Part shown: piece after piece, positions 3,280 to 47,122 of the stretch
How positions within the stretch are numbered: position 1 is the first letter of the stretch
How the letters are laid out: each line of letters starts with the position of its first letter
Virus record (IMG/VR): IMGVR_UViG_3300018080_000120
Reading direction: 5' to 3' (one strand)
Origin: a virus
Taxonomy: Duplodnaviria > Heunggongvirae > Uroviricota > Caudoviricetes
DNA: 64,000 bases
Program-made: the position numbers and the translations under genes
The notes under the pieces: model-generated
Database searches by the model: none
What the model was told of the DNA's origin: nothing
The model's input: only the letters and a program-made list of their open reading frames with translations

Positions 3280-3281
3280 CC

Positions 3282-4034: not shown

Positions 4035-4264
4035 AATCGAAAAAGTGTAACAGTTTAGGGAATGTTCAGCCACCCCCCTATAAAATGGCGACCTCGATAT
4101 AACCCGGTAAAATTTGGTCTCCCCGGCTGGCAAAACCACATAATATATAATAATATCATAAACATACAAAATCAGGTATTTTACCATGAAAATAATACTT
4201 ACATTATGGCTGGTATTTACATTATACCATATAATATTAATATATATACATTAGGAGATAAACC

Positions 4265-5133: not shown

Positions 5134-5301
5134 ATGACAGAATGGTTGAATAGATTAACGATTCAATTAGCTGGAATCTACGACTATCTCGTGAGCTTAC
5201 CAAAGGAAATATATCACTGGTTTATATCTCTAAGCCCATTGGCTCAGATAGGATTAGTATTATTAATTATTGCTGCCATCATAATAATGCTTGACGAATA
5301 G
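5134..5301 (+). CDS. small membrane protein (55 aa)
   Basis: RBS aaaggagataac; hydrophobic C-terminal half; in-frame 168 nt. Confidence 0.4.
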   Translation: MTEWLNRLTIQLAGIYDYLVSLPKEIYHWFISLSPLAQIGLVLLIIAAIIIMLDE

Positions 5302-5335
5302 TCACTAATAAATAAAAAGGAGGTTTTATTCTATT

Positions 5336-5788: not shown

Positions 5789-5888
5789 GAATGCAAAAAA
5801 ACATAGGTATATTAATAATAGTGATATTTATTATCCTATGGATAATTGAAGGATAAACTATTGCCATATTTGGAGAAAAGAGGAAAAT

Positions 5889-6215
5889 ATGAGACAAAAA
5901 AGGGCTATCTCAATACTCAATCGATTGAAACTAACGTGGGATGAGAAAGAACAGGAAATGTTAATAGATGACCCATTTCCGAAAATCTCAGCGGATGAAT
6001 ATGAAGACTTAATTCAAGGATGTGACATGAGTGGGTCTCCAGGTCATGATGAACAACAAATTCTAAATCTACTTAAGGCAGCCTATCCAGTAATTCCTTT
6101 CAATATAATTAAACAATTGGAAGGTAGAAAATTACAAGGATTCAGCTATGATCGAAAAAAAGGTGTACTTATAGATATATCAGAAGAAAAAGTATATAAG
6201 TATCCAGAAGAATAG
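5889..6215 (+). CDS. hypothetical protein
   Basis: 108-aa ORF with RBS ggagaaaagagg. Confidence 0.5.
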   Translation: MRQKRAISILNRLKLTWDEKEQEMLIDDPFPKISADEYEDLIQGCDMSGSPGHDEQQILNLLKAAYPVIPFNIIKQLEGRKLQGFSYDRKKGVLIDISEEKVYKYPEE

Positions 6216-9925: not shown

Positions 9926-10192
9926 GTGAACATTAAGAAAATAGGTAAATTTATCGAAATAGACCCAACACATTTGTTCTATAAAAAGTATACCATATGG
10001 AGTAATGGAGGCATGTTAGTAGATCGTCGTAAACCTACAAGGGTACAATCATATTTAGATGAATTGCCTCTTCTCTGGGAAGTACTTTTGAAAGCTGCAT
10101 ACTATGTAATTACATGGCCTATTGCAGCAGTTATTAAGTTCGTGTGGTACTTACTTACTGGTATATTTGTTCCTTCTAGGTTTTTAAGGTAG
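9926..10192 (+). CDS. hypothetical protein with C-terminal TM segment (GTG start)
   Basis: 88-aa ORF; hydrophobic C-terminus. Confidence 0.45.
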   Translation: MNIKKIGKFIEIDPTHLFYKKYTIWSNGGMLVDRRKPTRVQSYLDELPLLWEVLLKAAYYVITWPIAAVIKFVWYLLTGIFVPSRFLR

Positions 10193-10212
10193 GAAACAGG
10201 ACAACCTGATTA

Positions 10213-10234
10213 TTCACCCGCGCGAGGATTCGCG
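10213..10234 (+). promoter_or_regulatory. family-1 upstream element E7, compensatory variant (TTCACCCGCGCGAGGATTCGCG)
   Basis: stem CGCGA/TCGCG, loop GGAT. Confidence 0.65.
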
Positions 10235-10252
10235 AGAAAGGGAGGAAGGAGA

Positions 10253-10423
10253 ATGTTTAGACTATTCAAAAAAGACCCTCTAAAAAGGAAGCTAAGAAAG
10301 GCTAAAAGGGCAAAGAAGCAGGAAAGTAAAGCATATTGGAAAGCTGCCGAGGCAAGATGGAAAGAAGGACTTAGAATCGATGAATACATGGAGATGTGTA
10401 TACCGGCTGGAACTATGATTTAA
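10253..10423 (+). CDS. small basic protein (56 aa)
   Basis: strong SD gggaggaaggaga; follows E7; below ORF-track cutoff. Confidence 0.45.
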   Translation: MFRLFKKDPLKRKLRKAKRAKKQESKAYWKAAEARWKEGLRIDEYMEMCIPAGTMI

Positions 10424-10478
10424 ATCCACTACATAAAGCGTAATTCGCCCTGTGGTAACCAACAAGGAGGAGCAGATA

Positions 10479-10793
10479 ATGACAAAATCAGAAATTAACA
10501 GAGTAATGGAGAAAGTCAAACTTAATCCGATGCCTATTGATGAAAAGACAGGAAAACAGAATCCTTGGATATGCCCAAAATGTCAGGCTGAAGGCAAAGC
10601 AAAAGAAGAAATTCTGGATGAGAAAACTGAGTCTGCGGACTTCATGCTCGGAAATGAATCACTGTCGTACATAGAAATGGCGTGTGAATGTGGCTACGAG
10701 TGGTATATTATCTTGGAGTCAAAAGGCTGGACGGATGATGATGTTGCAGCGGAAGATATAATAAGCAAATTCATCCATGAAAAAGAAGAGTAA
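10479..10793 (+). CDS. zinc-ribbon protein
   Basis: CPKCQ...CECG; SD caaggagg. Confidence 0.55.
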   Translation: MTKSEINRVMEKVKLNPMPIDEKTGKQNPWICPKCQAEGKAKEEILDEKTESADFMLGNESLSYIEMACECGYEWYIILESKGWTDDDVAAEDIISKFIHEKEE

Positions 10794-10839
10794 GCAACAT
10801 TATTCATTCGTAGCTATCTGCGAAAAAGGAGGAAAAGAT

Positions 10840-11112
10840 ATGTCTGAGGAGAAAACAAGAGTAATTGACGGAGTCGAATATGAAGAAATGGGCCCTTACT
10901 GTGATATATGTGGGGCTCATATGGGTGAATACTATGATCCTAAGAAGGGATCTTTTATTAACCCGCACAATTATGATGAATACAGCAGCAATGTTTGCCC
11001 AGAATGCGGCCAGGAATATTCTTACGAAGAGGGTGATATGCCTATACTTGATGATGAAATGAAGGCTCTTATACTGGCGCATAACAAAGCGAAGCTCAAA
11101 GGAAAAGAGTAG
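10840..11112 (+). CDS. zinc-ribbon protein
   Basis: CDICG...CPECG; SD aaaggagg. Confidence 0.55.
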   Translation: MSEEKTRVIDGVEYEEMGPYCDICGAHMGEYYDPKKGSFINPHNYDEYSSNVCPECGQEYSYEEGDMPILDDEMKALILAHNKAKLKGKE

Positions 11113-11120
11113 GACAAATC

Positions 11121-11140
11121 TTTACCCGCGGCGATCCGCG
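11121..11140 (+). promoter_or_regulatory. family-1 upstream element E8 (TTTACCCGCGGCGATCCGCG)
   Basis: 13 nt before ATG 11154. Confidence 0.65.
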
Positions 11141-11153
11141 TTAGGAGGATAGA

Positions 11154-11498
11154 ATGATAAATCTTAAAGACTACATTTTAGACAGGATAGCGATTTCGTG
11201 CACTAACTTTCAACCATCGCTAACAGCAATGCGGCTTTTCGGAAGCTCGACCAGCTACGATAATATAGAATATGTATATATCTATAAAGATAACAAACGT
11301 GTGGGCAGCCTTAAGCTGTACTTCGAAGTGGATACTTTTAAAATAACCTTGGATAAAGGCCAGTTAGGTATGTTTAAAGGCAAATCGTATACTGGGCAGT
11401 ACGCCGATTTAACAGCTCTTGATGGAGTGGCCCAATGGCTTATTAAAGAAGCGGTTTCTGAGAACATCGACAAGGCCAAGCTCAAAGAAAAGAGATAA
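11154..11498 (+). CDS. hypothetical protein
   Basis: 114-aa ORF. Confidence 0.55.
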   Translation: MINLKDYILDRIAISCTNFQPSLTAMRLFGSSTSYDNIEYVYIYKDNKRVGSLKLYFEVDTFKITLDKGQLGMFKGKSYTGQYADLTALDGVAQWLIKEAVSENIDKAKLKEKR

Positions 11499-16042: not shown

Positions 16043-16217
16043 AATAGGAGACACATTAAGATCCATGTGGAAGAAACTTGGAGAAGTTCCAGACTGCCCA
16101 GCATGTGGAGGAACAGGGGAGCCAACAGGCAGATATAAAAACTTGGCCGTCCAAGTATGGTGGAAAGGAAGGCTTGTCACTGTCTGCCATAATTGTGAAG
16201 GCCGAGGAAAAGTATAA
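16035..16217 (+). CDS. zinc-ribbon protein
   Basis: CPACGG...CHNCEG; SD aaaaaggag. Confidence 0.55.
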   Translation: MSKIGDTLRSMWKKLGEVPDCPACGGTGEPTGRYKNLAVQVWWKGRLVTVCHNCEGRGKV

Positions 16218-16269
16218 AAAGAAAGGAGTAAGTGATGAACAACCCATTAAAAGAAGTTATGGCAACTTT

Positions 16270-16824
16270 ATGAAAAACGTGCTTGAAGATTTTGAAAATG
16301 GTGAAGTATTCAATCTAAAAAAAGAAGAATCTCTATTTGGCCCTTCTGATACCCCCGCCGTGATCCTGCATAATCCCAAATATCCTCATAATGTTGGTGC
16401 AGTAGTTCGGGCTTTATCTTGCTTTGGTGGTAAAACCTTGGTTTTTACAGGCAACCGGGTTTCTTTAACTCCGCCGGAAAATAAGGGGTATCGCTTACCG
16501 AGAGAGGAAAGAATGAAGGGATACAAAGATGTCACCATGATCAATGATGACTACCCTTTCAATCGCTTTTCTAAAAATGTTATTCCGGTCGCAATAGAAG
16601 TAAGGCGTAATTCTACACCATTGCCTATTTTCGAGCACCCTGAAAATGCTGTCTATGTGTTTGGGCCTGAAGATGGTAGCATTCCACAGGTTATGCTCCA
16701 ACATTGTCAGAGATTCGTGGTGATTCCGTCCAAACACTGCTTAAATTTGGCAGCGGCGGTGAACGTTATTCTTTATGACAGAATATCAAAACTTAACATA
16801 CTTATAGAGGAGGACATAAGATGA
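16270..16824 (+). CDS. SpoU/TrmH-family (SPOUT) RNA 2'-O-methyltransferase
   Basis: PHNVGAVVRALSCFG, VYVFGPEDGSIP, VVIPSKHCLNLAAAVNVILYDR = SpoU motifs 1-3; start chosen after upstream zinc-ribbon gene (ORF track extends to 16078). Confidence 0.75.
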   Translation: MKNVLEDFENGEVFNLKKEESLFGPSDTPAVILHNPKYPHNVGAVVRALSCFGGKTLVFTGNRVSLTPPENKGYRLPREERMKGYKDVTMINDDYPFNRFSKNVIPVAIEVRRNSTPLPIFEHPENAVYVFGPEDGSIPQVMLQHCQRFVVIPSKHCLNLAAAVNVILYDRISKLNILIEEDIR

Positions 16825-19436: not shown

Positions 19437-19883
19437 ATGAAAATGGAAAAAGCAATAACCAAATTTAGAGGAGAACATGCTTTTCTCAGCAATTTCTTTG
19501 GCGCCGAAATCAGAATAGGCAATAATACTTATTCTACCAATGAGCATGCATTTCATGCCGCTAAATGTGTAGACCCCGCCCAGCACGTGCTTATTTTAAA
19601 CGCCAAAAGCCCCGCTGAGGCAAAGTCTATTGGTAAGGAAGTAACCTTAAAGCCAAATTGGCTCGAAATTCAAGACGAAATCATGTTCTTTATCAATATG
19701 GTTAAATACACCACTCACTTTGACCTAAAACAGAAATTGTTGGCCACTGGCAGCCGAGAGTTGGTTGAGGGCAACTGGTGGGGTGACACTTATTGGGGAG
19801 TCTGCAATGGAGCAGGTGAAAATCGCCTGGGCAAGATCCTTATGAGAATTCGATATATTATGGGAGGAGCAATAGGAGAATAA
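19437..19883 (+). CDS. NADAR (YbiA-like, DUF1768) family protein
   Basis: FRGEHAFLSNFF, STNEHAFHAAK, WGDTYWGVCNGAGENRLGKILMRIR match YbiA/NADAR signature. Confidence 0.8.
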   Translation: MKMEKAITKFRGEHAFLSNFFGAEIRIGNNTYSTNEHAFHAAKCVDPAQHVLILNAKSPAEAKSIGKEVTLKPNWLEIQDEIMFFINMVKYTTHFDLKQKLLATGSRELVEGNWWGDTYWGVCNGAGENRLGKILMRIRYIMGGAIGE

Positions 19884-22836: not shown

Positions 22837-23142
22837 ATGCACAACAGAATACGTATTCGTTGGATCGAGACTTCACTTATTCCTGAGCCTGAAATTGTGG
22901 GAGAAGTTGAAATCGCTGAAAATTTCAACGGAGTAGGTGAAAGCCCGCTAAGAAGATTCGTAATTACCAAAAAGCAAGGTTCTCTGACATCATCGGCTGC
23001 TCCTGGGCATGACTATCTGCCAAAGTTGACACAAGAAGAGCAGGATAGAATTGAAGCCATGGTAAGATGTTATTATGAAGGCGTTACTCATAACAAAGAA
23101 AGTATTTCCTGGATGGAGAAATCAGATGATAACGGTAGTTAA
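22837..23142 (+). CDS. hypothetical protein
   Basis: 101 aa. Confidence 0.5.
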   Translation: MHNRIRIRWIETSLIPEPEIVGEVEIAENFNGVGESPLRRFVITKKQGSLTSSAAPGHDYLPKLTQEEQDRIEAMVRCYYEGVTHNKESISWMEKSDDNGS

Positions 23143-23452
23143 CCGTAAATTCTATAAAGGCCCAGGTATCTATATTGGCCGACCCATGCCAAGGCTTGGA
23201 TTAAATGGAAGCCTTCTTGCTAATCAGTATAGAATCGGCAAGGATGGAACCCGCGATGAATGCTGCGATAAATATGAAATTTGGTTCAACTGGCGTCTTG
23301 AGAGCGACCCATCTTTTGTTGCCTACATTGATTCACTTGTGATAGGAGCAAAGGAAGGTAAAGATCTTATCTTTATATGCTGGTGTAAACCTGAGCGGTG
23401 CCATGGGGACTTTATCAAGTCATTCATTGAGAATAAATTATGGGGCAATTAA
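23126..23452 (+). CDS. DUF4326-family protein
   Basis: IYIGRPMPRLGLNGSLLANQYRIG...CWCKPERCHGDFI resembles DUF4326 signature (YIGR...GNPF..., C.C.P..CHGD). Confidence 0.6.
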   Translation: MITVVNRKFYKGPGIYIGRPMPRLGLNGSLLANQYRIGKDGTRDECCDKYEIWFNWRLESDPSFVAYIDSLVIGAKEGKDLIFICWCKPERCHGDFIKSFIENKLWGN

Positions 23453-23953: not shown

Positions 23954-24844
23954 ATGAAAGCTCAAAATTTAACAATCAGTATCCCGTGTGAGGGAAAATG
24001 TGATAAGAATTGTGAATATTGCATCAGTAAGATGACTGGTTATCTAAAGCCAGATCTATATATGATGAGAAGAAATCTTCCCAAAGTAAGGAATCTTCTG
24101 GAGAGAGCTGATGCAGCATTCGTTTTATTCACAGGCAAAAAAGAGCCTTTGCTCAATTTTGAAGTCCTGCTGGAATTTGCCAACTATTTCAAAGATTATC
24201 CTATAGAAATTCAAACAAATGGTCTCCGCCTCAACAAACATAGAGAGTGGATTCATTTCTTAGAGGGTGCAGGCGTAGATGTATTTGCTTTTTCAATCGA
24301 TGATATTAGACAGATGGAAAGATACAGGCTTATGTTTAAAGCAATAGCTGATGTAAATCTCACCACCCGAATTTGTTTGAATTTGACCAATAAAATTTCG
24401 ACAAATGTGAATTTCGAAGAAATCTTTTCTATCTGCAAATCGTATCCTGTTCAGCAACTACTAGTTCGAAATATAATGATACCTGACAAAATAGTGAACA
24501 CTGAGGAATCTCATAGGGCAGCACAATGGATAAAGAGCAATGTAGATCCAGTTCGATACTATGAAATGTATATGGAGTTTCTCAGACTATCAGGAATCGC
24601 TTATGCAGGAAGTGGCTATGGCACTCTTGATAAAATACTGGCTGATGTAGATAACCGGAGAACACATCTTGTACGAAAGCTGCCTCATGGTGCCTTAGTA
24701 TGGGACCATGAAGATATTGCTGTGAGTTTTTCAGACTATTGCATTCAAGAGGCAAATAATACAGAAGATATTCGAAGCTTGATCCTTCAGGATACTGGAC
24801 ATGTTGATACTTCCTGGGATAAGAAAGCAAGTCGATTATTTTAA
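23954..24844 (+). CDS. radical SAM domain protein
   Basis: CDKNCEYC = CxxxCxxC near N-terminus. Confidence 0.7.
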   Translation: MKAQNLTISIPCEGKCDKNCEYCISKMTGYLKPDLYMMRRNLPKVRNLLERADAAFVLFTGKKEPLLNFEVLLEFANYFKDYPIEIQTNGLRLNKHREWIHFLEGAGVDVFAFSIDDIRQMERYRLMFKAIADVNLTTRICLNLTNKISTNVNFEEIFSICKSYPVQQLLVRNIMIPDKIVNTEESHRAAQWIKSNVDPVRYYEMYMEFLRLSGIAYAGSGYGTLDKILADVDNRRTHLVRKLPHGALVWDHEDIAVSFSDYCIQEANNTEDIRSLILQDTGHVDTSWDKKASRLF

Positions 24845-25104: not shown

Positions 25105-25119
25105 TGGAGGAAATAAGAA

Positions 25120-26037
25120 TTGATTGAACTAAGCAAAGATTACGAAAGAATATATGATAACATAATCGATCACACAGGGCGCTATATACAAAAACATAAA
25201 TTGCAATCTGTAGTGATTGGGTTATCTGGTGGAATAGATAGCACTCTGACCGCAGCTCTTGCAGATGCTATAGCTTGGGATATTGATGTCCATCTGAGAA
25301 TAATCGGCGTAAGTATTCCTTCTATGACCAACCATCAGGCCGAAATAGAAAGGGCGAGAAAGACGGGCGAAGCTTTTTGTGATGAGCTTCATGTAATGGG
25401 CAAGGGATTCGGCACAAAGAGATATACTCTGGATTCCATTCTTAAAGCATTCACCTCTCGGCTAAAACCATATAACAAAATCTTCCCCATTCCTATCGCA
25501 ATCCGGAATAGAAGTTCTAGAATGCAAAAGGTTGGCCGAGGCAATTTGAAAGCTCGAATAAGAATGGCAATTCTTTATGACATTGCCCATCATCGTTCAG
25601 GTATGGTTTTATCTACTGATAACTATACTGAATATTTACTCGGCTTCTGGACCTTACATGGAGATGTCGGCGATTTTGGAATGTTTCAAAACTTATTCAA
25701 GACCGAAGTTTACGGGCTTGCTAAGTATGTTTCCACCCGCCTTGTGAAGAAAGGTTGGAAGAATAAAAAACTCCCTCTGCAAATTGAGGCGCTTAGGGAA
25801 GCTGCTTCAGCTATTCCAACGGATGGGCTTGGTCTTGGCAGCGATATGGATCAGATAGGAGCCTCGAATTATTATCAGGTTGACAAAGTCTTGTTGAAAC
25901 ATCTAAATGATGTTCCTATAGTTTCGCCTTATATAGCCGAGAGAATGACAGCCGATCGTATTATTAAAAGACACAAAAGTACGAATTATAAAAGGCATAA
26001 TCCATATAACATTCCAAGAGAGGGCTTATTGAAATGA
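25120..26037 (+). CDS. nadE: NH3-dependent NAD+ synthetase-like PP-loop ATPase (TTG start)
   Basis: GLSGGIDSTLTAALA PP-loop; TDNYTEYLLGFWTLHGDVGDFGMFQNLFKTEVYGLAKYV matches NadE region (GTDNKSE..GY.T.YGDG...P...L.K..V..LA). Confidence 0.65.
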   Translation: MIELSKDYERIYDNIIDHTGRYIQKHKLQSVVIGLSGGIDSTLTAALADAIAWDIDVHLRIIGVSIPSMTNHQAEIERARKTGEAFCDELHVMGKGFGTKRYTLDSILKAFTSRLKPYNKIFPIPIAIRNRSSRMQKVGRGNLKARIRMAILYDIAHHRSGMVLSTDNYTEYLLGFWTLHGDVGDFGMFQNLFKTEVYGLAKYVSTRLVKKGWKNKKLPLQIEALREAASAIPTDGLGLGSDMDQIGASNYYQVDKVLLKHLNDVPIVSPYIAERMTADRIIKRHKSTNYKRHNPYNIPREGLLK

Positions 26038-27221
26038 TAATCAAGAGCTTATTAGATAATGACACCTACAAATTTACCATGTGGCAAGCTGCACTACATC
26101 GATTTCCGGATGCAATGGTGCGATACAAATTTCATTGTCGCACTCCAGGTTTGGACCTCGGTAAATTTGCTGTTAGGGTGGTGGATGAGATAAATCACCT
26201 TTGCTCCTTAAGATTTCTGGGCGACGAGCTGGAATATTTGAGTAAATTACGATTCATTAAGCCTGATTTCGCTCAATTTCTCAAGCTATACCAATATGAT
26301 CCCCAGTTTGTAAAAGTCAATTCTCATAAGAGTTTTGAGAATAACGACTTAGAGATTGAAGTGGAAGGCCCGTGGGTTCATACCATTGGTTTCGAAGTTC
26401 CGATTCTGGCCATTGTCAGCGAGATATACAGCGAATCACAGAATCCAGACTGGGACCTTGGTAGAAATAAGCTTGACGAAAAAATAGAGCTGGTCAAAAG
26501 GCATGGCTTTCCTCAAACATTGACAACTACGGAACTCATTTTTCTATTTTCAGAATTTGGTGGTAGAAGAAGAGCAAGTTTCGATTGGCATGATTATGTG
26601 ATTCGATTATTATCTGTTACCTTGCCGGAAAATCTTGTTGGTACCAGCAACGTCTATTTTGCCAAGAAATACAATCTGAAAGCGATTGGAACTCAAGCTC
26701 ATGAATGGTTTCAAGCTCATCAACAGCTTGGCTATCGATTGATAGACTTTCAAAGAATGGCTTTGGAAAACTGGGCAAAAGAATATCGCGGAGATTTAGG
26801 AATTGCATTATCTGATACTGTTGGCGTGAATGCCTTTCTCAGAGATTTTGATATGTATTTTGCCAAACTCTACGATGGAAGCCGCCAGGATTCTGGATCT
26901 CCGTATTCATATTGTGAAAAAATGATACACCATTATGAAGGATTCAAAATATCTCCATTGTCGAAATTCGTAGTTCCGAGTAATGGTTTAACAATGAGAG
27001 AAGCCCTGAAAATTTACCATGAGTTTCGGCATCATATAAACATATCTTGTGGTATTGGAACTCATTTAACAAATGACCTTAACTATAAACCAGCACAGCT
27101 GGTTATGAAAATGGTTGAGTGTAACGGTCAGCCTGTCGCAAAGATAAGCGATGATCCAGCGAAGGGAATGTGTGAAGATCCCGAATATGTGGAACATCTA
27201 AAGAAAGCCTTTAGCCTTTAA
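26034..27221 (+). CDS. pncB: nicotinate phosphoribosyltransferase-like protein
   Basis: N-terminus LLDNDTYKFTMWQAALHRFPDAMVRYKF resembles PncB N-terminus; length ~400 aa. Confidence 0.65.
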   Translation: MIIKSLLDNDTYKFTMWQAALHRFPDAMVRYKFHCRTPGLDLGKFAVRVVDEINHLCSLRFLGDELEYLSKLRFIKPDFAQFLKLYQYDPQFVKVNSHKSFENNDLEIEVEGPWVHTIGFEVPILAIVSEIYSESQNPDWDLGRNKLDEKIELVKRHGFPQTLTTTELIFLFSEFGGRRRASFDWHDYVIRLLSVTLPENLVGTSNVYFAKKYNLKAIGTQAHEWFQAHQQLGYRLIDFQRMALENWAKEYRGDLGIALSDTVGVNAFLRDFDMYFAKLYDGSRQDSGSPYSYCEKMIHHYEGFKISPLSKFVVPSNGLTMREALKIYHEFRHHINISCGIGTHLTNDLNYKPAQLVMKMVECNGQPVAKISDDPAKGMCEDPEYVEHLKKAFSL

Positions 27222-29725: not shown

Positions 29726-29932
29726 ATGACGGCCAGAAAATTACCAACAATCGAAAAGTGGGGAGAAACTTACTACATAGATCATCGGTTAGGTGAATTG
29801 AGAAATGTGGAAAATCCATGGGACGTTGTAAATATTGATAATTGTCCTGATGAAGAAGAATTCTTTAACATTATGATGGACGCTGTATCCATAGAAAAAC
29901 ATGAAGACACTGAACTCAATAAATGGGGGTAA
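29726..29932 (+). CDS. hypothetical protein
   Basis: 68 aa. Confidence 0.45.
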   Translation: MTARKLPTIEKWGETYYIDHRLGELRNVENPWDVVNIDNCPDEEEFFNIMMDAVSIEKHEDTELNKWG

Positions 29933-29934
29933 AT

Positions 29935-30366
29935 ATGCTGTTAGCTGTTTACGGAAGTTTTCGAAAAGGTGAAAGCCGTGCCCACGTTCTCGATGAATTG
30001 AGAGCAAAGGGTAAATCAGAACTCGCTGAAATTCCAGGAGTTAAACTGTATGTCATGGGTTATGTGCCTGGTGCAAAGGTAACATATGATCTTGACGATA
30101 AAGCGGTGGTTGAACTGATATATGCACATCTTTCTAAGAAGGAAACAGAAGATCTTCTGGAAGAGCTGGACCGCATTGAAGGTGTCAAGCACGGCTTGTA
30201 CCAGAGAAATTATATCATAACTCAATTAGGCGAGGCTCTTATTTACACATTCTGTGGTTCGGTAGAAGGATCTGTAGAGATAACCGATTGGCATGAATGG
30301 CAAGGTAGAAGCGAAAGAGAAAAAAGAAAAGCCGTAAGAAATCTTGATGGCAGAGCAATAATGTAG
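29935..30366 (+). CDS. gamma-glutamylcyclotransferase (GGCT/AIG2)-like protein
   Basis: MLLAVYGSFRKGESRAHVL (YGSLxxG motif), LEELDRIEG...YQRNYI (catalytic Glu region). Confidence 0.6.
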   Translation: MLLAVYGSFRKGESRAHVLDELRAKGKSELAEIPGVKLYVMGYVPGAKVTYDLDDKAVVELIYAHLSKKETEDLLEELDRIEGVKHGLYQRNYIITQLGEALIYTFCGSVEGSVEITDWHEWQGRSEREKRKAVRNLDGRAIM

Positions 30367-31538: not shown

Positions 31539-31579
31539 TATAGTTGGTAAATAAAAAAAGAGAAGGAGAAAAGAAGACT

Positions 31580-32461
31580 ATGAAAAGTATCAAAAGATTT
31601 TTATCCGCAATTGTAGTTACCGCATGTATGTTTCTTGTAATGGGATGTACCGAGCGCGTTCCGCCTGGGTACGTTGGTATGGTTATGGAGCCCGACGGTC
31701 TGACAGGTATCGTCTGTCAGCCTGGTAATCACCAATGTTACAATCGTGACAAAATGGCCCTTATTGAGATGGTTGAAGTCACCAAGACAGAAAAGATGGC
31801 AGTTTTGTGTACCGACGATCTCAATATGAAGTTTGACCTGAAGATTCGTTCAAGGCTAAAAACGCAGGATAGCAAAAGCGTTATGGCCGTGTTGAATCGG
31901 CAAGGCTCAAAGATCAAGTGGGACGGTGCCTCCGGTATTTTACCGTTTGATGCACTATATGTGACTTATGTTCAGGGGCCGGCCCGGTCCATCGCAAGGG
32001 GCATAGTATCAAAATATGAAACGACTGCCATCCGAGGCGCTCGAAAAGAAATCGAGAAATCGATAGCCACAGAATTGCTGGAGGCCGTCAAAGGAACTCC
32101 TGTTGAAATCACGATGGTTGTGACCTCCAATCTGGATTACCCCGACGTTATAACTAAAGCCATGGAAAAGAAGAGAACCCGGGAGATCGAGATCCAAGAG
32201 GAAAAGGCCAAACAGGCCATGGAATTGCTGAAGGCTGATAACCGGCTCAAGGTTGCCAATAAGTTGAAGGTTACGAGAACCGCTGAGGCGGAAGCAGAAG
32301 CCGTGTACAATCGCATCATGGGCAAATCCCTGACTGATAGGTACCTCAAGTTGAGAGAGGTCGAGGCCAGACTCGAGCTGTACAAGAATATCAAGGATAA
32401 GGACAAGATCGTCATTACAGACGGTGGAACGGCCACACCCTTGGTAAATCTCGGTAAATAA
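31580..32461 (+). CDS. lipoprotein
   Basis: MKSIKRFLSAIVVTACMFLVMGC lipobox. Confidence 0.55.
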   Translation: MKSIKRFLSAIVVTACMFLVMGCTERVPPGYVGMVMEPDGLTGIVCQPGNHQCYNRDKMALIEMVEVTKTEKMAVLCTDDLNMKFDLKIRSRLKTQDSKSVMAVLNRQGSKIKWDGASGILPFDALYVTYVQGPARSIARGIVSKYETTAIRGARKEIEKSIATELLEAVKGTPVEITMVVTSNLDYPDVITKAMEKKRTREIEIQEEKAKQAMELLKADNRLKVANKLKVTRTAEAEAEAVYNRIMGKSLTDRYLKLREVEARLELYKNIKDKDKIVITDGGTATPLVNLGK

Positions 32462-34883: not shown

Positions 34884-35777
34884 ATGAAAGTAGGATTAGC
34901 CCTGGGAGCAGGTGGAGCAAGAGGTCTTGCTCATCTTGGCGTATTAAAATTATTAGAAGAGGAAAAGATTCCAATTAGTCAAATCACAGGATCTTCAATT
35001 GGTTCTGTAGTTGCCGCAGCCTATGCTCAAAAGCCAGATGCTAACCGATTAATAGAAGGATTGAAGAGATTGGTAAGTCATGGTGCTTTCGATAAGTTAG
35101 GTTTGGATTATTTGAAACCCGGCGCCGAATTATCTCTTTTGCGGCAGATAGCTGAGAACGTCAAGAAAAGGATCGTCATAAATCTTGCATATAATAAGAA
35201 AGCTTTTCTGAAAAGAGAAGACCTCAGATCTGTATTGAGCAAAATTTTAGAAAACAAAAATATAGAAGACTGTAGAATTTCTCTTGGCATTGCCTCGACC
35301 GATTTGAAAACAGGCGATACTTATATGTTTCATAAAGGAAACATTATTGAAGCAGCGATGGCTAGTTGTGCCGTTCCCGGATTTCTTTCCCCCTTCGAGA
35401 TCGGCCACAAATTGTTATCGGATGGCGGAGTTAGCTGTCCAGTCCCCGTTCAATTTTTGAACACGGACTTAAAAATTGCAGTGGAAGTTGGAGTGCGAGA
35501 GCATTTTCCTCTGAGAAATCTCAATATCATAGAGATAATAGATTGCTCGAGCGGAATAATGATAAGAAAGCTGGCCGCTTTAATGGCAAGGACAGCGGAT
35601 ATTGCAATTTATCCCGATACCAAAGACGTGCATTGGTCTGATTTTCATAGAGCAGACGAACTAATTAGAGCTGGTTATATTGCTGCAGGTAGAGCTCTGC
35701 CTAAAATTAAGGAAGCTTTACGAAAACCTTCGTGGCTGGAGAGGCTTTTACACAAGAAAAGGACTTGGGTAGTATGA
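34884..35777 (+). CDS. patatin-like phospholipase
   Basis: GAGGARGLAHLGVL (oxyanion GGxR), GSSIGS (GxSxG serine), LSDGGV (catalytic Asp DGG). Confidence 0.85.
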   Translation: MKVGLALGAGGARGLAHLGVLKLLEEEKIPISQITGSSIGSVVAAAYAQKPDANRLIEGLKRLVSHGAFDKLGLDYLKPGAELSLLRQIAENVKKRIVINLAYNKKAFLKREDLRSVLSKILENKNIEDCRISLGIASTDLKTGDTYMFHKGNIIEAAMASCAVPGFLSPFEIGHKLLSDGGVSCPVPVQFLNTDLKIAVEVGVREHFPLRNLNIIEIIDCSSGIMIRKLAALMARTADIAIYPDTKDVHWSDFHRADELIRAGYIAAGRALPKIKEALRKPSWLERLLHKKRTWVV

Positions 35778-36208
35778 AAGTAATTATCGCTGGTAGTCGA
35801 AGTATAAAAGATTATGCTTTTGTTAGACAAATTCTAAATCATGTATGCCAAATCTATTCAATAATTCCGTCTGAAATAGTCTCTGGAAAGGCGAAAAGGG
35901 GAATAGATAAATTAGGTGAAAGATGGGCGGAAGAAAATGGAGTCCCCGTTAAACCATTTCCTGCGGATTGGGATAATCTGGCAGCTCCTGGTGCAGTTGT
36001 AAGAACTAACAACTTTGGTAAACAATATAACGTGAGAGCTGGATATGACCGCAATCAGGAAATGGCAGAATATGGTGATGTTCTGATCGCTATATGGGAT
36101 GGTGTCAGTAATGGTACTAAGGATATGGTTGAAAGAGCAAGAAAAGAAGGTCTAATAGTCTTTCTTTATAACACATCCATTGACGAATGGAAAATTTGGA
36201 GTGTATAA
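35774..36208 (+). CDS. SLOG-superfamily (DUF2493/YspA-like) protein
   Basis: MKVIIAGSRSI..., GKAKRGIDKLGERWA, AGYDRNQEMAEYGDVLIAIWDGVSNGTKDMVERA match DUF2493 pattern (GSR, G.D, RN..M, WDG.S.GT). Confidence 0.55.
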   Translation: MKVIIAGSRSIKDYAFVRQILNHVCQIYSIIPSEIVSGKAKRGIDKLGERWAEENGVPVKPFPADWDNLAAPGAVVRTNNFGKQYNVRAGYDRNQEMAEYGDVLIAIWDGVSNGTKDMVERARKEGLIVFLYNTSIDEWKIWSV

Positions 36209-39224: not shown

Positions 39225-40637
39225 ATGAATTTTGCAAAGGCTCTACAAGAAAATCGAGTTCTTCAAGAAGCAACTTCTATTTTGAGTAAAATAGAGCAGG
39301 CCGGATATTCTGCTTTTATCGTTGGTGGGGCAGTCCGTGATTTACTAATGGGTAAGGAAATAGATGATGTTGATTTAACCACCAATTGTCCAGTAAAAAT
39401 CCTCGAAGAAATGTTTATTACCTATGACATTGGCAGATCAAAAGATTTTGGTATCTTGTCTATAGTTGGGGATCATGGAACTTATGAAACTGCTCAATTC
39501 CGAACTGATGGTAAATATGAGGATGGTAGAAGACCTAAAGATGTCAAAATAGCAGGCACTTTTCGAGAAGATTCTTTCCGGCGAGATTTTACCGTCAACG
39601 CTATGGGTATAGATAAGAAAGGAAATCTTTTTGATTACGTTGGCGGAAGAGGTGATATTTATTGTCGAAGAATTCGTGCGGTTGGAAATCCAGTAGTGAG
39701 ATTTACGGAAGATCATCTGCGAATGATAAGAGCTCCGAGGTTTGCTTCTAAAACAGGCTTTTCCATCGAAAGGAGTACTCGAATAGCCATAAGAAGGCTG
39801 TTCAAACTAATAAATAATATCACACCTGAAAGAATCCGCTTGGAAATCATAAAAGCTGCAAAGCTTGGTGGAAAAAGATTTGCCAATTTCATTCTTCAGC
39901 TCGACAATTTGAAACTTTTGTCTCGAATTTTACCAGAAGTCCATAATCTAAAATATTTCGAGCACAATCTCCGCCATCATCCTGAGGGAAAAGACGTGCT
40001 TACTCATGTTATTCGGTGTTTGGAAGTCAGTGATGGTGTTGACTATCTTTCACTACTAAGCATTCTGTTTCATGACATAGGAAAAGGGACTTCTTGGCAA
40101 GAAAAAGGTGGTGGGTTTCCCCCAAGTTATCATCGACATGAACGAGCGAGTGCAGACCTCACTCAAGGAATATGTGAGAGGCTGAAATTCAGTCTTTACG
40201 AAACTCGAGCTATGGTTTTTGCCGTCAAAAATCACATGAAGTTTTTTGAAATGTGTGATATGAAGCCATCCAAAATAGCTCGGCTTGTGAACGAGGAACA
40301 TTTCGATATTCTTAAAAGAGTGGCATATGCTGACCAATTTTCTCGTGGCGAAGAATTCATGTATTACAATCAATTCGACAAGTATTTAGCAAAAGCTCTC
40401 AAGCTGAAAAACCAGTGGGAAAACAAAACAGTGGACCACAAATTGAAATTGGTTGATGGCAAGAGGATCATGGAATTGCTGGATATTGATCCCGGCCCAA
40501 TAGTGGGAGAGATCAAAAACGAAGTGGAAGAATATATAATTGATAACTCTATAAACCCAGACGATAAGGAGAAGATAGATGAAATAATTCTGTCTATTGG
40601 AGGGAAAAATGAAAAGCATACTAAGATCGATTCTTGA
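39225..40637 (+). CDS. cca: CCA-adding enzyme / tRNA nucleotidyltransferase with C-terminal HD domain
   Basis: FIVGGAVRDLLMGKEIDDVDLTT (class II NTase head GGxVRD...DxD), FRRDFTVNAM (RRD motif), LFHDIGK (HD). Confidence 0.9.
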   Translation: MNFAKALQENRVLQEATSILSKIEQAGYSAFIVGGAVRDLLMGKEIDDVDLTTNCPVKILEEMFITYDIGRSKDFGILSIVGDHGTYETAQFRTDGKYEDGRRPKDVKIAGTFREDSFRRDFTVNAMGIDKKGNLFDYVGGRGDIYCRRIRAVGNPVVRFTEDHLRMIRAPRFASKTGFSIERSTRIAIRRLFKLINNITPERIRLEIIKAAKLGGKRFANFILQLDNLKLLSRILPEVHNLKYFEHNLRHHPEGKDVLTHVIRCLEVSDGVDYLSLLSILFHDIGKGTSWQEKGGGFPPSYHRHERASADLTQGICERLKFSLYETRAMVFAVKNHMKFFEMCDMKPSKIARLVNEEHFDILKRVAYADQFSRGEEFMYYNQFDKYLAKALKLKNQWENKTVDHKLKLVDGKRIMELLDIDPGPIVGEIKNEVEEYIIDNSINPDDKEKIDEIILSIGGKNEKHTKIDS

Positions 40638-41227: not shown

Positions 41228-41412
41228 TAGAAATAGACGGAAAGATTCATGATAAATATTGTCCATTTCATCATATGCCTTATTTCTCTGGAGATGGATG
41301 TCCTAATTGCCGTAAATTAAGTCCTTCTGTAAAAGAAAAGATTCCTTTAGCAATTCGTATGTCAAATAAAGAAAAGAGGCTTAAAGATGTTCAGGAAGTA
41401 TCCGGAAATTGA
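41224..41412 (+). CDS. zinc-ribbon protein
   Basis: CPFHH...CPNC. Confidence 0.45.
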   Translation: MIEIDGKIHDKYCPFHHMPYFSGDGCPNCRKLSPSVKEKIPLAIRMSNKEKRLKDVQEVSGN

Positions 41413-42355
41413 GAATACTTACAATAGAAAGTTCATAGATAAGTTTATCTATTTGTATCCACAACTTCTTAAGGCACATTATGTGATCTATGAGAAGCTA
41501 CATGGTAGTAATGTACAAATTATCGTTCCCAGTAATGGAGATTTTCAGTTAGGTAAGCGCCACAGTCTAATTGAACCCAATGAAAACTTTTATGGTATAT
41601 GGGATACTATAAAACGTTATTCTCAGCCTATAAACAAAATCTCTGAATATGTGAAGAGATGTGGTTATTCCTATATGAATTACTACTGCGAGTATTTTGG
41701 TGGCGATGGTGAAAGAGAGCCAAGGATCCAAAAAGGAGTAATTTACAACCCTCTACAACAGATTAGATTTTTCGCTGTGGCGATTGAGGGTAGACTTCAG
41801 CCGCCCATAGTTCTTGAAGATATTTTTGACCATTTAGGGCTGAAAGAATTGTTAGTACCAAAAATAGGTATAATAGAAGGCTTGGATGCTGCTTTACATA
41901 TAGATGTAAATATGACTACTTTAATTAATCCTTACATTGAGGATAACTTTTTGGAAGGTGTGGTCATCCAGCCTCATACCAGAACTTTCGTAGATAAAAC
42001 TGGTAAACGTTTCCTTCTGAAGAAAAAACATCCGAAGTTTGAAGAAAGGGGAAAAAGGAAGAAATCAAAGCCAGTAGTTAATGATTTAGACGAAAAGATC
42101 ATTGGTCGGCTTCATGAGATATTTCTTGGATATCTAAATGAAAATAGGCTGCAAGGAACATTTTCTAAGGTCGGAGAAATTCAGGACAAATCCGAGATGA
42201 GCAAGTACATCGAATTTACGATAAAAGATGCCATCAAAGATTTTGAAAAAGATTTCGGCGATGAAATGGATGAAGCTGGGTATAGCCGCTTAGAAAGGAA
42301 GCGTATCTACAAAGGGGCAGGAGTTATTGTGGAAATGCTTAAGCAATATTTATAG
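41387..42355 (+). CDS. ATP-dependent RNA ligase (Rnl2-like)
   Basis: EKLHGSNVQI = ligase motif I (KxHGxN as in T4 Rnl2 KIHGTN); NFLEGVVIQP (motif IV), FLLKKKHPKF (motif V). Confidence 0.7.
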   Translation: MFRKYPEIENTYNRKFIDKFIYLYPQLLKAHYVIYEKLHGSNVQIIVPSNGDFQLGKRHSLIEPNENFYGIWDTIKRYSQPINKISEYVKRCGYSYMNYYCEYFGGDGEREPRIQKGVIYNPLQQIRFFAVAIEGRLQPPIVLEDIFDHLGLKELLVPKIGIIEGLDAALHIDVNMTTLINPYIEDNFLEGVVIQPHTRTFVDKTGKRFLLKKKHPKFEERGKRKKSKPVVNDLDEKIIGRLHEIFLGYLNENRLQGTFSKVGEIQDKSEMSKYIEFTIKDAIKDFEKDFGDEMDEAGYSRLERKRIYKGAGVIVEMLKQYL

Positions 42356-43468: not shown

Positions 43469-44782
43469 GTGTTTGTAATACCGCCCGGATTACTTATAAA
43501 TAGTAATGTAAATGACATAATATTGCCACTAGATTATTTTGGCATACATCTTGAGGATTTCATTGCCAAGCCTATTAAAGTCTGGATGAATAGAGCTCTT
43601 GATATCGAACCGGAATGTTTTGGACAATTAATGAACCTGGCAAATCTGCCGTTCATTCATTCTCATGTATCTCAGATGGCTGATGGTCATAAGGGATATG
43701 GTATGTCTATTGGCGGTGTAATTGCCACAAAAGATGTGATAATTCCTAACGCAGTAGGAAAAGACGTTGGGTGTGGTATGTTGGCTTTCATGTTGACTAA
43801 TCTAACTTTAGATGATATTATGCCCCGAAGAGAAGACATTGTTGCAGAAATTCTCAAAAAGATCCCGGTTGGTTTTGATCACAGAAAGAATCCTTTCCGA
43901 ATGAAAGGATACATCATGACCAAAATAAAGAAGGAGATATTAGAGAGAAGCGCAATAAATGGTATCGGCCATCCCAAAAAGCCTGAGCCTCCTGTTTTTG
44001 GAAAGGAAAAGGAAAGAATAGAATATCAAACTGCAACCCTTGGCGGAGGGAATCATTTTATTGAAATTCAGAAAGACGAAGAAGGCCATCCCTGGATAAT
44101 GATTCATTCAGGAAGTCGTAATTTTGGCTCCAGAGTATGTGGTTATTACGACAAAATTGCCGCAGATATAAATGATAAATACTATTCTCAAGTGCCAAGA
44201 AAATGGGAGCTTGCATTCATACCGAGAGAAGATCCTTTGTTCAATTATTATTGGTATGACATGCAATGTGCTTTGTATTTTGCCTATCTAAATAGGTTAT
44301 ATATGCATTTTGTGATTGTGGAAGATGTATTACCTGCCATATTCGGCAAAAGGACAGGATATACTGCACCTATTAATATCCATCATAACTATGCGTCTCT
44401 TGAAAATCACTTCGGGAAAAATGTGTTCGTCCACCGGAAAGGTGCGACCCAAGCAAAGAAAGGACAAACTTGCATAATACCTGGATCAATGGGTACAAAT
44501 AGTTATATTGGAAAAGGTTTGGGGAACAAAGATTCATTCGAATCTTGTTCTCATGGATCTGGTAGGGCTCTTCCTCGCAATAAGGCTTTGAAGAAGTTTA
44601 CCAAAGAACAAGTTCTTGCTTATTACAAAGAAAGAGATATTGTGCTGGGTGTTAAGGATCTTGAAAAGATCGCAGCTGAATGTGATTGGGCTTACAAAGA
44701 TATCAAGGACGTAATGAAAAATCAGGAAGACCTTGTAAAAATTGTCCATGAACTGACACCAGTTGCAGTCGTCAAGGGATAA
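43469..44782 (+). CDS. rtcB: RtcB-family RNA ligase
   Basis: IPGSMGTNSYIGKG, CSHGSGR, VFVHRKGAT, GGGNHFIE match RtcB conserved motifs. Confidence 0.85.
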   Translation: MFVIPPGLLINSNVNDIILPLDYFGIHLEDFIAKPIKVWMNRALDIEPECFGQLMNLANLPFIHSHVSQMADGHKGYGMSIGGVIATKDVIIPNAVGKDVGCGMLAFMLTNLTLDDIMPRREDIVAEILKKIPVGFDHRKNPFRMKGYIMTKIKKEILERSAINGIGHPKKPEPPVFGKEKERIEYQTATLGGGNHFIEIQKDEEGHPWIMIHSGSRNFGSRVCGYYDKIAADINDKYYSQVPRKWELAFIPREDPLFNYYWYDMQCALYFAYLNRLYMHFVIVEDVLPAIFGKRTGYTAPINIHHNYASLENHFGKNVFVHRKGATQAKKGQTCIIPGSMGTNSYIGKGLGNKDSFESCSHGSGRALPRNKALKKFTKEQVLAYYKERDIVLGVKDLEKIAAECDWAYKDIKDVMKNQEDLVKIVHELTPVAVVKG

Positions 44783-45832: not shown

Positions 45833-47122
45833 GTGATGAATTTCGGAAACTTAAACAGAAAGTTATTAAGGAAGGTTTGGGAAAGGGAGATGGAATTTGC
45901 TATGTTAGGAGGAGACCCTGAGTTCTTTGTTGCAAATAAAAAGGGCAAAATTCTTCCAGCGGACAAATTTCTTCCAAGTAAATATAAACCTTACAAGGTA
46001 AATGCGATAAGTGATTCAAAAGACAAAGAATGGCAAAAGAATCGCATTTATTTTGATGGCATTCAAGCCGAAATGGCGGTAGCGCCATGTACTTGTAGAG
46101 AAGATTTGCTATCTAATTTCTATAATTGCTTGAGAGGGGCAGAAAGAAAGATTGGAACCAACCAGATAATTCTGAAGCCTTCGGTTAAAGTTGATTTCAA
46201 AACCATCGAAGAGGCTGACCCCGAAGCGAGGATATTTGGGTGTGACCCTGATTTTAATGCGTATACCCTTACTCAGAATACTCCAGAAATGGATGCTTCT
46301 CGTCATCCATATCGATATGCTGGCGGGCACATTCATCTTGGTATAATTAAAAACTATCTTGAAGAGATCCCAGAAAATCAACGCGTGATAGCAATGGAGC
46401 CTGAAGGGCATATTCGTCTCGTGAAGTTCCTGGATGTTATGGTTGGTATTCCTGCTTTGTTGCTTGATAATGTACCTGGATCAAAGAGGAGAAGATCAAA
46501 ATACGGTAAGGCTGGTTGTTTCAGACCAACACCATACGGTATAGAATATAGAACTTTGAGCTGTTGGTGGCTTAAGTCGCCCATTACTGCGTCCTTAGTT
46601 TATGGCCTCGCAAGAATGGCATGGAGTCTGTGCATACAAAAGCTGGACGAAGAAGTAAGAGAAGCCGCAGGATGCGCTGAGGAGGATATCAGAGGAATTC
46701 TTGATTCTGGTGATGTAAAAGCTGCCACAAAATTGTGGGAAAATCATTTAGGTCCTCATATAGCTGGTATGTATAGTGAAAGTGAAAATCCCCTGCATAT
46801 AGGAGCATTCACTTCTCCCGATTATGCTTATTTGGACCCCAAATGGGAACCGTTAAAAGGAAGTAGACCCAGTCTTCTAGCTGGTAGAGCGTTAGACCCA
46901 AAAGAGGATGGCCTTCCAGTCTTCACTCTTGCAGCTTTTGAATATATGAGGAAGAACGGAATTCACAGTGTCATAAATGAAGATGTCAAGACAGAATGGG
47001 ATATAGATCAGAGAAGAGCTTTAGAAGCTCCAAACAGCGGAATGGTTGAAGGCTTATATGAAAAGCTACGCTTTCATCCAGATTTCCATAAATTCCAAGA
47101 ATCTTTTCTTGGAGCATTTTAA
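45833..47122 (+). CDS. glutamine-synthetase-like amidoligase superfamily protein (paralog A)
   Basis: LGGDPEFF N-terminal metal-binding acidic motif, YAGGHIHLGI (HxH), shared with 62027 product (GCDPEFFL, FHIHFGLP, ELRP). Confidence 0.4.
   Translation: MMNFGNLNRKLLRKVWEREMEFAMLGGDPEFFVANKKGKILPADKFLPSKYKPYKVNAISDSKDKEWQKNRIYFDGIQAEMAVAPCTCREDLLSNFYNCLRGAERKIGTNQIILKPSVKVDFKTIEEADPEARIFGCDPDFNAYTLTQNTPEMDASRHPYRYAGGHIHLGIIKNYLEEIPENQRVIAMEPEGHIRLVKFLDVMVGIPALLLDNVPGSKRRRSKYGKAGCFRPTPYGIEYRTLSCWWLKSPITASLVYGLARMAWSLCIQKLDEEVREAAGCAEEDIRGILDSGDVKAATKLWENHLGPHIAGMYSESENPLHIGAFTSPDYAYLDPKWEPLKGSRPSLLAGRALDPKEDGLPVFTLAAFEYMRKNGIHSVINEDVKTEWDIDQRRALEAPNSGMVEGLYEKLRFHPDFHKFQESFLGAF

Follow-up and report, generated by a model that had tools for sequence, protein, structure and literature searches.

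The DNA analysed here (the window) is a stretch of 64,000 nucleotides (nt) from the Caudoviricetes record IMGVR_UViG_3300018080_000120 in IMG/VR, and the genes under study, nadE and pncB, lie next to each other at positions 25120-27221. Their two products are enzymes of nicotinamide adenine dinucleotide (NAD+) synthesis by the deamidated (Preiss-Handler) route, and the pair probably raises NAD+ flux during infection, sustaining the phage when NAD+-degrading (NADase) effectors (TIR, SIR2, SEFIR and the like) deplete the pool or when NAD+ is limiting. NAD+ depletion is among the commonest outcomes of bacterial anti-phage immunity. In the proposed mechanism, nadE and pncB would be co-transcribed with an upstream radical S-adenosylmethionine (SAM) enzyme gene (rSAM) and a short gene, orf82. 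PncB would convert nicotinate and phosphoribosyl pyrophosphate (PRPP) to nicotinate mononucleotide (NaMN) in an ATP-driven reaction, NadD from the host or from an unsampled phage gene would turn NaMN into nicotinate adenine dinucleotide (NaAD), and NadE would join NaAD with ammonia to give NAD+. The feeder step from nicotinamide to nicotinate (PncA) would likewise come from the host or from unsampled genome. With the pair expressed in infection, more flux would pass into NAD+. If this is true, phages would boost NAD+ via nicotinate while borrowing the host NadD, the outcome would depend on host pncA, host nadD and the niacin supply, and this dependency could possibly be exploited in phage engineering.

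Both open reading frames (ORFs) and their NadE-like and PncB-like identities, put forward in an initial annotation made from the sequence, are upheld by profile searches. NadE is a single-domain, NH3-type NAD+ synthetase that scores 126.8 bits against PF02540 NAD_synthase (cut-off 21) and 111.8 bits against the equivalog_domain model TIGR00552 (cut-off 63.65). The two motifs on which the annotation had relied are present: the PP-loop motif SGGIDS occupies residues 36-41 (nt 25225-25242) and is invariant in a 36-sequence alignment, and the "YGDxG" region, at the position of the canonical NadE motif, has the sequence HGDVG (residues 180-184). All residues that are invariant for the family in this alignment are retained (SGGIDS, GNxKARxRM, STDNYTE, GFWTLHGD, KTEVY, PTDGLG and KRxNP), with GNLKARIRM at 141-149, STDNYTE at 165-171, HGD at 180-182, K194, and PTDGLG at 233-238. 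An AlphaFold2 model was obtained with a mean local confidence (pLDDT) of 87.7 and a predicted template modelling score (pTM) of 0.89. The best 50 PDB matches listed by Foldseek for this model were all NAD or nicotinamide mononucleotide (NMN) synthetases, and template modelling scores (TM) on target for the best single-domain NadE structures among the matches listed were 0.72-0.86. No CN_hydrolase (nitrilase-like glutaminase) domain was found in NadE by Pfam scan. Single-domain NadE proteins without a glutaminase domain form the ammonia-utilising class, of which the characterised members use NaAD and ammonia (PMC3376133), and by this classification the window enzyme is predicted to be of the ammonia-utilising type, because it has no such domain.

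A database search returned 4,591 NadE homologues, of which the best are proteins of ~280 amino acids (aa) with 40-47 % identity over their full length; named ones among the best relatives include proteins from Desulfobacterales/Desulfobacteraceae and Patescibacteria metagenome-assembled genomes (MAGs) at ~43-44 % identity. In a Desulfobacterales MAG (GCA_030632885.1, locus L093, 8001-8846), a 43 % identical NadE is encoded beside APS reductase and aminotransferase genes with no PncB adjacent, and the NadE subfamily is therefore not phage-specific, this being an ordinary cellular neighbourhood. Secondary matches of the window protein are weak (tRNA_Me_trans 16.5 bits, LarE 20.5 bits, MnmA 17.3 bits). 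An identity as QueC, a tRNA thiolase or LarE was rejected, with 17-20 bits against 110-127 bits for NadE models and a fold that, among the matches listed, fits NAD/NMN synthetases only.

PncB exceeds the curated cut-offs for nicotinate phosphoribosyltransferase, scoring 436.6 bits against TIGR01514 (269.55) and 502.2 bits against NF003704 (379) with residues 1-394 covered. The initial annotation had recognised the enzyme from its N-terminus; the identity stands, and the match spans the whole length rather than the N-terminus alone. The protein has two domains, PF17767 at residues 7-129 (118.6 bits) and PF04095 at residues 170-394 (234.8 bits), and among solved structures it is most similar to Pseudomonas aeruginosa PncB (1YIR), with which it aligns end to end at 367 bits. 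The catalytic motif GTQAHEW is found at residues 219-225 (His223), where 1YIR has GTMAHEW and 3OS4 has GTQAHEW in the alignment. In the enteric enzyme, ATP hydrolysis is coupled through autophosphorylation of the histidine of GTxAHEW. The match to the phage Nampt family is weak (phrog_448, 44.5 bits) while the NAPRTase scores are strong, which argues for a preference of PncB for nicotinate over nicotinamide. An inactive phosphoribosyltransferase (PRTase) was rejected, PncB being full-length with its catalytic motif kept.

The TTG start of nadE, which follows a Shine-Dalgarno sequence, is in line with where homologues P0002 and P0003 begin in alignment A1. The stop codon of nadE and the start codon of pncB share a 4-nt ATGA overlap (Table 1), by which, as the annotation had proposed, the two genes are translationally coupled, to judge from the sequence. 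The rSAM gene, orf82 and nadE follow in succession with spacers of 11-15 nt and a ribosome-binding site before each. No terminator-like hairpin was found on the + strand between 22,000 and 29,042, and promoter-like and terminator-like sites in the window did not exceed shuffled expectation.

Recurrence of the pair and the radical SAM gene

NadE was matched in 8 and PncB in 13 of 50,697 deposited phage records, and in two of these records, both of uncultured gut phages, the genes lie side by side. Over IMG/VR, a protein-context index and the deposited records together, PncB and NadE are paired in at least 10 unrelated viral contigs. Chance pairing is excluded, because the genes are rare and yet adjacent in many independent viral contigs. 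Loci L006-L080 from IMG/VR, in which pncB lies at the contig end, were read as host genes at prophage borders and left out.

PncB is followed by NadE at loci L004, L089/L090 and L091. The L089/L090 type comprises at least 24 contigs, in which the pair lies among genes for ribonucleotide reductase, ThyX, dUTPase, DNA ligase and PIF1, and the 221-kb contig L091 encodes a Gp23 capsid protein. At L002 and L005, PncB is followed by a glutamine-dependent NadE of 635-673 aa with a CN_hydrolase domain. Fuller clusters have the order PncB-Nudix-NadD-NadE-PncA-like (L001), PncA-like-rSAM-PncB-NadD-NadE (L092, L108-L113), rSAM-PncB-NadE-NadD-PncA-like (L114) and PncA-like-PncB-NadE with NadD further along (MT835470). 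The isochorismatase-family genes are named PncA-like from context, since their profiles are only weakly nicotinamidase-like. The adenylyltransferases of these relatives are NadD-type (TIGR00482, 144.5 and 117.9 bits, cut-off 112.45). The window lineage, consisting of the window, L081, L082 and L088, has PncB and NadE, and no homologue of NadD, PncA, NAMPT or NMNAT was found in the window or the sampled flanks. The wider cluster of PncA, rSAM, PncB, NadD, NadE and Nudix genes occurs in other phages and in genome bins of DPANN archaea and candidate phyla radiation (CPR) bacteria, and by gene content the window module can be described as a trimmed Preiss-Handler version of it.

The rSAM gene, two genes upstream of nadE, had not been picked up in the initial annotation. 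Its product belongs to the radical SAM superfamily by its cluster-binding motif, a profile match and a partial TIM-barrel fold, and it falls below the curated subfamily cut-offs (TIGR04084 34.8 against 225, MoaA 27 against 284, viperin 17.1 against 180). Only one further cysteine (C263) is invariant and no SPASM-type auxiliary cluster motif is evident; the family carries generic automatic names only, and no named subfamily was matched. In structure, the protein comes nearest to GDGT-MAS, viperin and MoaA, with 12-16 % identity; with viperin and MoaA, which act on CTP and GTP, the resemblance is one of fold only, and the C-terminal beta-rich part differs. Assignment of rSAM by profile or fold gave generic radical SAM similarity only and was rejected.

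The window rSAM is 69 % identical to that of L088, where the gene order is the same, and aligns end to end with the rSAM of the L092 cluster (24 % identity, E 9e-17). PncB lies within 7 kb of 7 of the 24 full-length rSAM relatives in IMG/VR, rSAM is found within NAD-salvage clusters in six viral lineages, and clustering of neighbouring genes gave PncB, NadE and NadD as the only families common to unrelated rSAM loci. Genome bins were searched with a 3-sequence rSAM alignment against one-genome-per-species GTDB contigs, and the family was found at 52 loci, mostly in DPANN archaea and CPR bacteria, plus Deltaproteobacteria. NAD-salvage genes lie within 7 kb at 25 of these 52 loci, mostly in DPANN archaea, against an expectation of ~1-2 % for a random gene relative to a single-copy gene in a ~1-Mb genome, which is an estimate and not a computed control. 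No NAD neighbours were seen at the Deltaproteobacteria members (on contigs of 0.94-1.76 Mb) or at most of the IMG/VR members nearest to the window protein, and the linkage of rSAM to NAD genes is not universal.

Two of these loci show rSAM among other sets of NAD genes. In an eighth of the 24 IMG/VR relatives, on a 188-kb contig (L094, 6435-9214), it stands between an NMNAT-like cytidylyltransferase-like gene and NAMPT, a NARP2-type pair (see below), and at one of the 25 bin loci, on a 394-kb archaeal-bin contig (L145, 5079-13059), the order is PncB-PncA-like-rSAM-NadE-NadD-Nudix, followed by a NadR-like gene (CTP_transf and AAA_28) and a weak NAD-kinase match.

The rSAM gene is the most conserved extra partner of pncB and nadE, and its product may be a component of the NAD pathway. 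No mention of such a partner was found in the phage-NAD literature searched, in which the association of rSAM with NAD salvage appears unreported. A wider proposal, offered tentatively and held to be rather doubtful, is that rSAM is a functional part of nicotinate/nicotinamide salvage in DPANN archaea, CPR bacteria and large phages, and that the phage core of rSAM, NadE and PncB (to which PncA, NadD and Nudix may be added) constitutes a fourth, Preiss-Handler-type pathway of NAD+ restoration that defeats NADase immunity. The association offers a handle on an enzyme of no named subfamily and may point to a reaction still lacking from a NAD pathway that is generally regarded as fully mapped.

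The other two genes packed around the pair are confined to this phage lineage. The product of orf82 has no Pfam or PHROG match; the gene occupies the same position in L088 (61.5 % identity) and is identical in L081/L082, is absent at the other rSAM/NAD loci compared, and was rejected as a conserved peptide substrate of rSAM on account of this restriction. The class I SAM-dependent methyltransferase gene after pncB is kept only in the same-phage contigs L081/L082 and at no other NAD locus compared. Its membership of the NAD module is uncertain, and as a candidate member it was rejected for the same reason.

Genomic setting and missing steps

The features of the window are listed in Table 1.

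Table 1 Features located in the 64-kb window
Feature	Positions	Strand	Basis or remark
SpoU-family RNA methyltransferase	16078-16824	+	
NADAR domain protein	19437-19883	+	PF08719, 87.3 bits; context: ADP-ribose processing
DUF4326 protein	23075-23452	+	PF14216, 58.7 bits
rSAM enzyme, 296 aa (891 nt)	23954-24844	+	CxxxCxxC at C16/C20/C23
orf82, 82 aa	24856-25104	+	Between rSAM and nadE; AGGAG ribosome-binding site upstream
nadE Shine-Dalgarno sequence GGAGG	25107-25111	+	Read from sequence; 8-nt spacer
nadE TTG start	25120-25122	+	Read from sequence
nadE, single-domain NH3-type NAD+ synthetase, 305 aa	25120-26037	+	Profiles, motifs, fold
ATGA overlap, nadE stop / pncB start, 4 nt	26034-26037	+	Read from sequence
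pncB, nicotinate phosphoribosyltransferase, 395 aa	26034-27221	+	Profiles, motif
Class I SAM-dependent methyltransferase, 212 aa	27236-27874	+	PF13847, 29.9 bits; starts 14 nt after pncB
Gamma-glutamyl cyclotransferase-like (GGACT) protein	29923-30366	+	
SPFH/Band-7 protein	31544-32461	+	Downstream of NAD module
Patatin-like phospholipase	34884-35777	+	Downstream of NAD module
YAcAr (SLOG-family) protein	35732-36208	+	PF10686 recorded for identical gene in L081/L175; phrog_289, 110 bits
CCA-adding enzyme	39225-40637	+	PolyA_pol head and HD
Rnl2-like RNA ligase	41387-42355	+	
RtcB	43469-44782	+	357.7 bits
phiEco32-type COOH.NH2 ligase	45833-47122	+	
Nudix	49399-49962	+	57.7 bits; 22 kb from pair
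RNA polymerase (RNAP)-like fusion, 1,099 aa	53091-56390	+	Single chain with motifs of RNAP beta (Rpb2 domain 6) and beta' (Rpb1 domain 2)
phiEco32-type COOH.NH2 ligase	62027-63235	+	

The window corresponds to nt ~15,882-79,881 of an 85,077-bp contig in ENA, and identical genes with the same phage neighbours are present in several other samples. Every credible gene of the window is on the + strand, and the nadE and pncB genes have a G+C fraction (GC) of 0.37-0.40, the same as that of the window (0.39). GC is uniform at ~0.39 beyond the first 4 kb. A composition step is seen in window positions 1-6000, with GC of 0.45-0.47 over the first 4 kb and 0.32 at 4-6 kb. An origin of the pair as host DNA or at a prophage border was rejected, because the genes are in the middle of the 85-kb contig, are uniform with it in strand and GC, and recur in samples.

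Among the window proteins, a COOH.NH2 ligase and an SF2 helicase are of phage type (phrog_3815, 151.7 bits, and phrog_16, 195.7 bits, respectively), and SLT and HNH proteins are also encoded. No tRNA gene was found in the whole 64-kb window, and no related deposited phage was found by blastn of the locus. The gene content, which includes small ORFs all on one strand, gives good support for reading the window as accessory DNA of a large phage, rich in genes of conflict, although no hallmark gene proves it. The phage genome is large and poorly sampled, and the sampled DNA is incomplete.

The CCA-adding enzyme, the Rnl2-like ligase and RtcB form an RNA-repair set that probably counters tRNA-cleaving defences. 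In L001 and L003, RtcB and PncB are likewise no more than ~4 kb apart, and L092, L095 and L120 have RNA ligase genes close to their rSAM/NAD cluster. Further GATase_6 genes and a third COOH.NH2 ligase lie downstream of the window (L083/L084, 11163-19189); together, the COOH.NH2 ligases and GATase_6 genes resemble a system for ligating peptides or amino groups. At the unrelated locus L004, a weak Band-7 protein (10189-11454) is encoded directly after NadE.

The NADAR, DUF4326 and YAcAr genes flank the NadE-PncB pair at distances within 6-9 kb. Comparative-genomic surveys connect all three with the processing of NAD+/ADP-ribose, and comparative genomics predicts that DUF4326 and YAcAr proteins are linked to, or use, NAD+/ADP-ribose (Iyer et al. 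2021, PMC7824862). The initial annotation had pointed to the NADAR and Nudix proteins as linked to NAD; both domains were confirmed, but the Nudix protein is not of an NAD type, its best weak matches being to IPP-isomerase/YfcD-type proteins and not to ADP-ribose or NMNAT-linked ones, and with its distance from the pair it was rejected as a member of the NAD pathway.

The remaining enzymes of the route were sought in several ways. Pfam scans of 38 window proteins found no NadD, PncA, NAMPT or NMNAT, phmmer --max with NadD and PncA probes found nothing in all six-frame window ORFs, and tblastn of NadD, NMNAT and NAMPT probes from related loci found nothing in the window, so that the earlier remark that the NaMN adenylyltransferase is not seen there is borne out. 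In the Pfam scans of these 38 proteins, which cover the small ORFs in part, Prs-like, PnuC and NadR families were not found either. As no gene for NadD or PncA was found in the sampled DNA, these two steps would be supplied by the host or by genes elsewhere in the phage genome; because the genome is incomplete, the absence of NadD from the whole phage is unproven. Comparative genomics indicates that NadD and NadE are apparently constitutive in many bacteria (PMC2330245), and P. aeruginosa has a pncA-pncB1-nadE operon with no nadD that is induced during jumbo-phage infection (PMC7318152). Together with the NadD-type partners seen in relatives of the window module, constitutive NadD and a nadD-less bacterial operon make it plausible that the NadD step is left to the host.

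The "reconstitution" of which the initial annotation had spoken cannot be taken as established in the strict sense of rebuilding NAD+ from the NADase products nicotinamide and ADP-ribose, because the substrate of PncB is nicotinate and a nicotinamidase was not found. The fuller relatives with PncA-like and Nudix genes fit that term better.

Alternative explanations

A number of observations weigh against the proposed role of the pair. NADase effectors release nicotinamide, not nicotinate, and as PncB needs nicotinate and no PncA was found, the module would recycle the NADase product only via a host nicotinamidase. No NadD or NMNAT is recorded in the flanks of the 85-kb contig that were read, nor in ~10 kb beyond each side in sister contigs. 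NadE stays under the full-length equivalog cut-offs (NF010587, 126.6 against 255; NF001979, 69.5 against 250) and is for that reason regarded as a divergent member of the NadE family, and among its Foldseek matches the NMN synthetase of Francisella, 3FIU, comes first, with a negligible lead. The adjacency of rSAM and the methyltransferase to the pair in this one genome is weak evidence, because tight packing is normal in phages. As to the phage setting, the window was found to contain no structural hallmark gene, and a tblastn search of the 50,697 deposited phage records with the RNAP-like protein gave no match at E 1e-10.

The same biochemistry might serve general metabolic support, with nadE and pncB acting as an auxiliary metabolic gene pair that meets the demand of the phage's own NAD+-consuming or redox-dependent processes or allows nicotinate to be used in hosts without this branch of salvage. 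This purpose is possible, although it is judged rather unlikely, and it is compatible with a counter-defence purpose. It fits the L089/L090 loci, in which the pair lies among nucleotide-metabolism and replication genes and not among anti-defence genes, as well as the occurrence of the rSAM-containing cluster in genome bins without evident phage conflict. A survey of gut jumbo phages has proposed complementarity between phage and host NAD+ routes (Microbiome 2024, PMC11662467), and the induction of host pncA-pncB1-nadE by a jumbo phage was described with no defence system invoked (PMC7318152). On the other hand, conflict-type genes abound in the window (NADAR, DUF4326, YAcAr, RtcB, Rnl2 and the CCA-adding enzyme), and all experimentally tested phage NAD+ pathways are counter-defence. 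The neighbourhood of the pair, with NADAR, DUF4326, YAcAr and RNA repair, leans towards conflict, and contexts of the L089 type lean towards metabolism; that the pair may help to counter immunity based on NAD+ depletion is plausible.

If NadE were a Francisella-type NMN synthetase, PncB would form NaMN, NadE would convert it to NMN, and an NMN adenylyltransferase of the host or phage would complete NAD+, with no adjacent NadD needed. The top fold match is indeed to 3FIU (E 4.6e-12, TM on target 0.86), several phage lineages have PncB and NadE with no NadD within 7-8 kb, and the combination of PncB with NadE* gives engineered bacteria a functioning route to NMN. The lead of 3FIU over an ordinary NadE is negligible, however (1XNG, E 1.2e-11), and the fold search does not discriminate between the two; by sequence, the closest solved relatives are the Campylobacter jejuni, Helicobacter pylori and Pyrococcus horikoshii NAD synthetases, with 3FIU sixth. 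Relatives with a 41-43 % identical NadE adjoin a NadD-type and not a NadM-type adenylyltransferase, and the same NadE subfamily is found in the cellular context of a Desulfobacterales MAG. The archaeal short NadE that has been tested lacks this activity, and the switch in Francisella accompanies the replacement of NadD by NadM (PMC3376133). An NMN synthetase is accordingly improbable.

The rSAM, orf82, NadE, PncB and methyltransferase proteins might together make a modified pyridine nucleotide instead of ordinary NAD+, for example an NAD+ analogue or signal mimic that resists or interferes with NADase effectors. The rSAM protein, which is conserved beside salvage genes, has compact structural relatives acting on nucleoside triphosphates (viperin and MoaA), and a SAM-dependent methyltransferase follows PncB. 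Such a product is nevertheless very improbable: PncB scores as an ordinary NAPRTase equivalog, NadE keeps all of its family-invariant residues, and the methyltransferase and orf82 are restricted to this lineage. The rSAM of genome bins stands in housekeeping-like NAD clusters with NadD, NadR-like and NAD-kinase-like genes, and this setting speaks for a part in the normal supply of NAD+.

An annotation artefact can be dismissed. Under it, either the PP-loop protein would be a tRNA thiolase or QueC, with an inactive PRTase (the outcome that the initial annotation had named as refuting it), or else LarE, or the pair would be host DNA at a prophage border: the weak secondary PP-loop matches and the contig-end position of most IMG/VR pncB loci (L006-L080) speak for it, and it is refuted by the NadE scores and fold, the full-length PncB with its GTQAHEW motif, the mid-contig position and the identical genes across samples.

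Comparison with known systems

The phage NAD+ pathways demonstrated to date are NARP1 (Adps and Namat) and NARP2 (Nampt and Nmnat; bioRxiv 10.1101/2024.02.11.579819), and NARP3 (PnuC and NadR; PMC13464706). They defeat NADase defences, and none of them uses PncB or NadE or the deamidated route; the surveys of Iyer and colleagues cover the NadV/NadM/NadR route only. The description of the window genes as a Preiss-Handler-type pair, distinct from NadV/Nmnat, holds. NARP2, known for example from Vibrio phage KVP40 and countering Thoeris, DSR and SIR2-type systems, resembles the window module in being a salvage from PRPP and a pyridine base, and the PF04095 catalytic domain is common to NARP2 Nampt and the window PncB. 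In contrast to NARP2, the base in the window system would be nicotinate, the intermediates deamidated and the final step an ATP-dependent amidation, and there is no adenylyltransferase; the window PRTase has NAPRTase_N and not NAMPT_N, and the NAMPT and NMNAT probes of L094 gave no tblastn match. NARP1 and NARP3 are likewise two-gene phage operons that restore NAD+, but their enzymes and substrates are unrelated (ADP-ribose pyrophosphate, ADPR-PP, and uptake of nicotinamide riboside, respectively), and no Namat homologue was found in the window by tblastn.

The P. aeruginosa pncA-pncB1-nadE operon is similar to the window in carrying pncB and nadE in one operon without nadD, and differs in that the window is without pncA and has a NadE of a different, ~280-aa subfamily.

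A close precedent is formed by the pncB-nadD-nadE clusters of gut jumbo phages (such as Kuafu_71 and Kuafu_19), which were described computationally only (Microbiome 2024, PMC11662467) and in which PncB and NadE are likewise clustered and were proposed to make NAD+ from nicotinate. The same three-gene set is shared by L092, L108-L114, L001 and MT835470. The complete set is not present in the window, which has pncB and nadE only; compared with these clusters, the window phage is without nadD in the sampled DNA, the order is nadE-pncB, and an rSAM gene precedes the pair. The term "radical SAM" does not occur in the full text of PMC11662467. In a cultured Xanthomonas phage, Preiss-Handler genes have been listed as auxiliary and the same role has been speculated upon (PMC13384950). 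The core idea of a phage Preiss-Handler route is not new, and the nadD-less two-gene form described here is a distinct variant of it.

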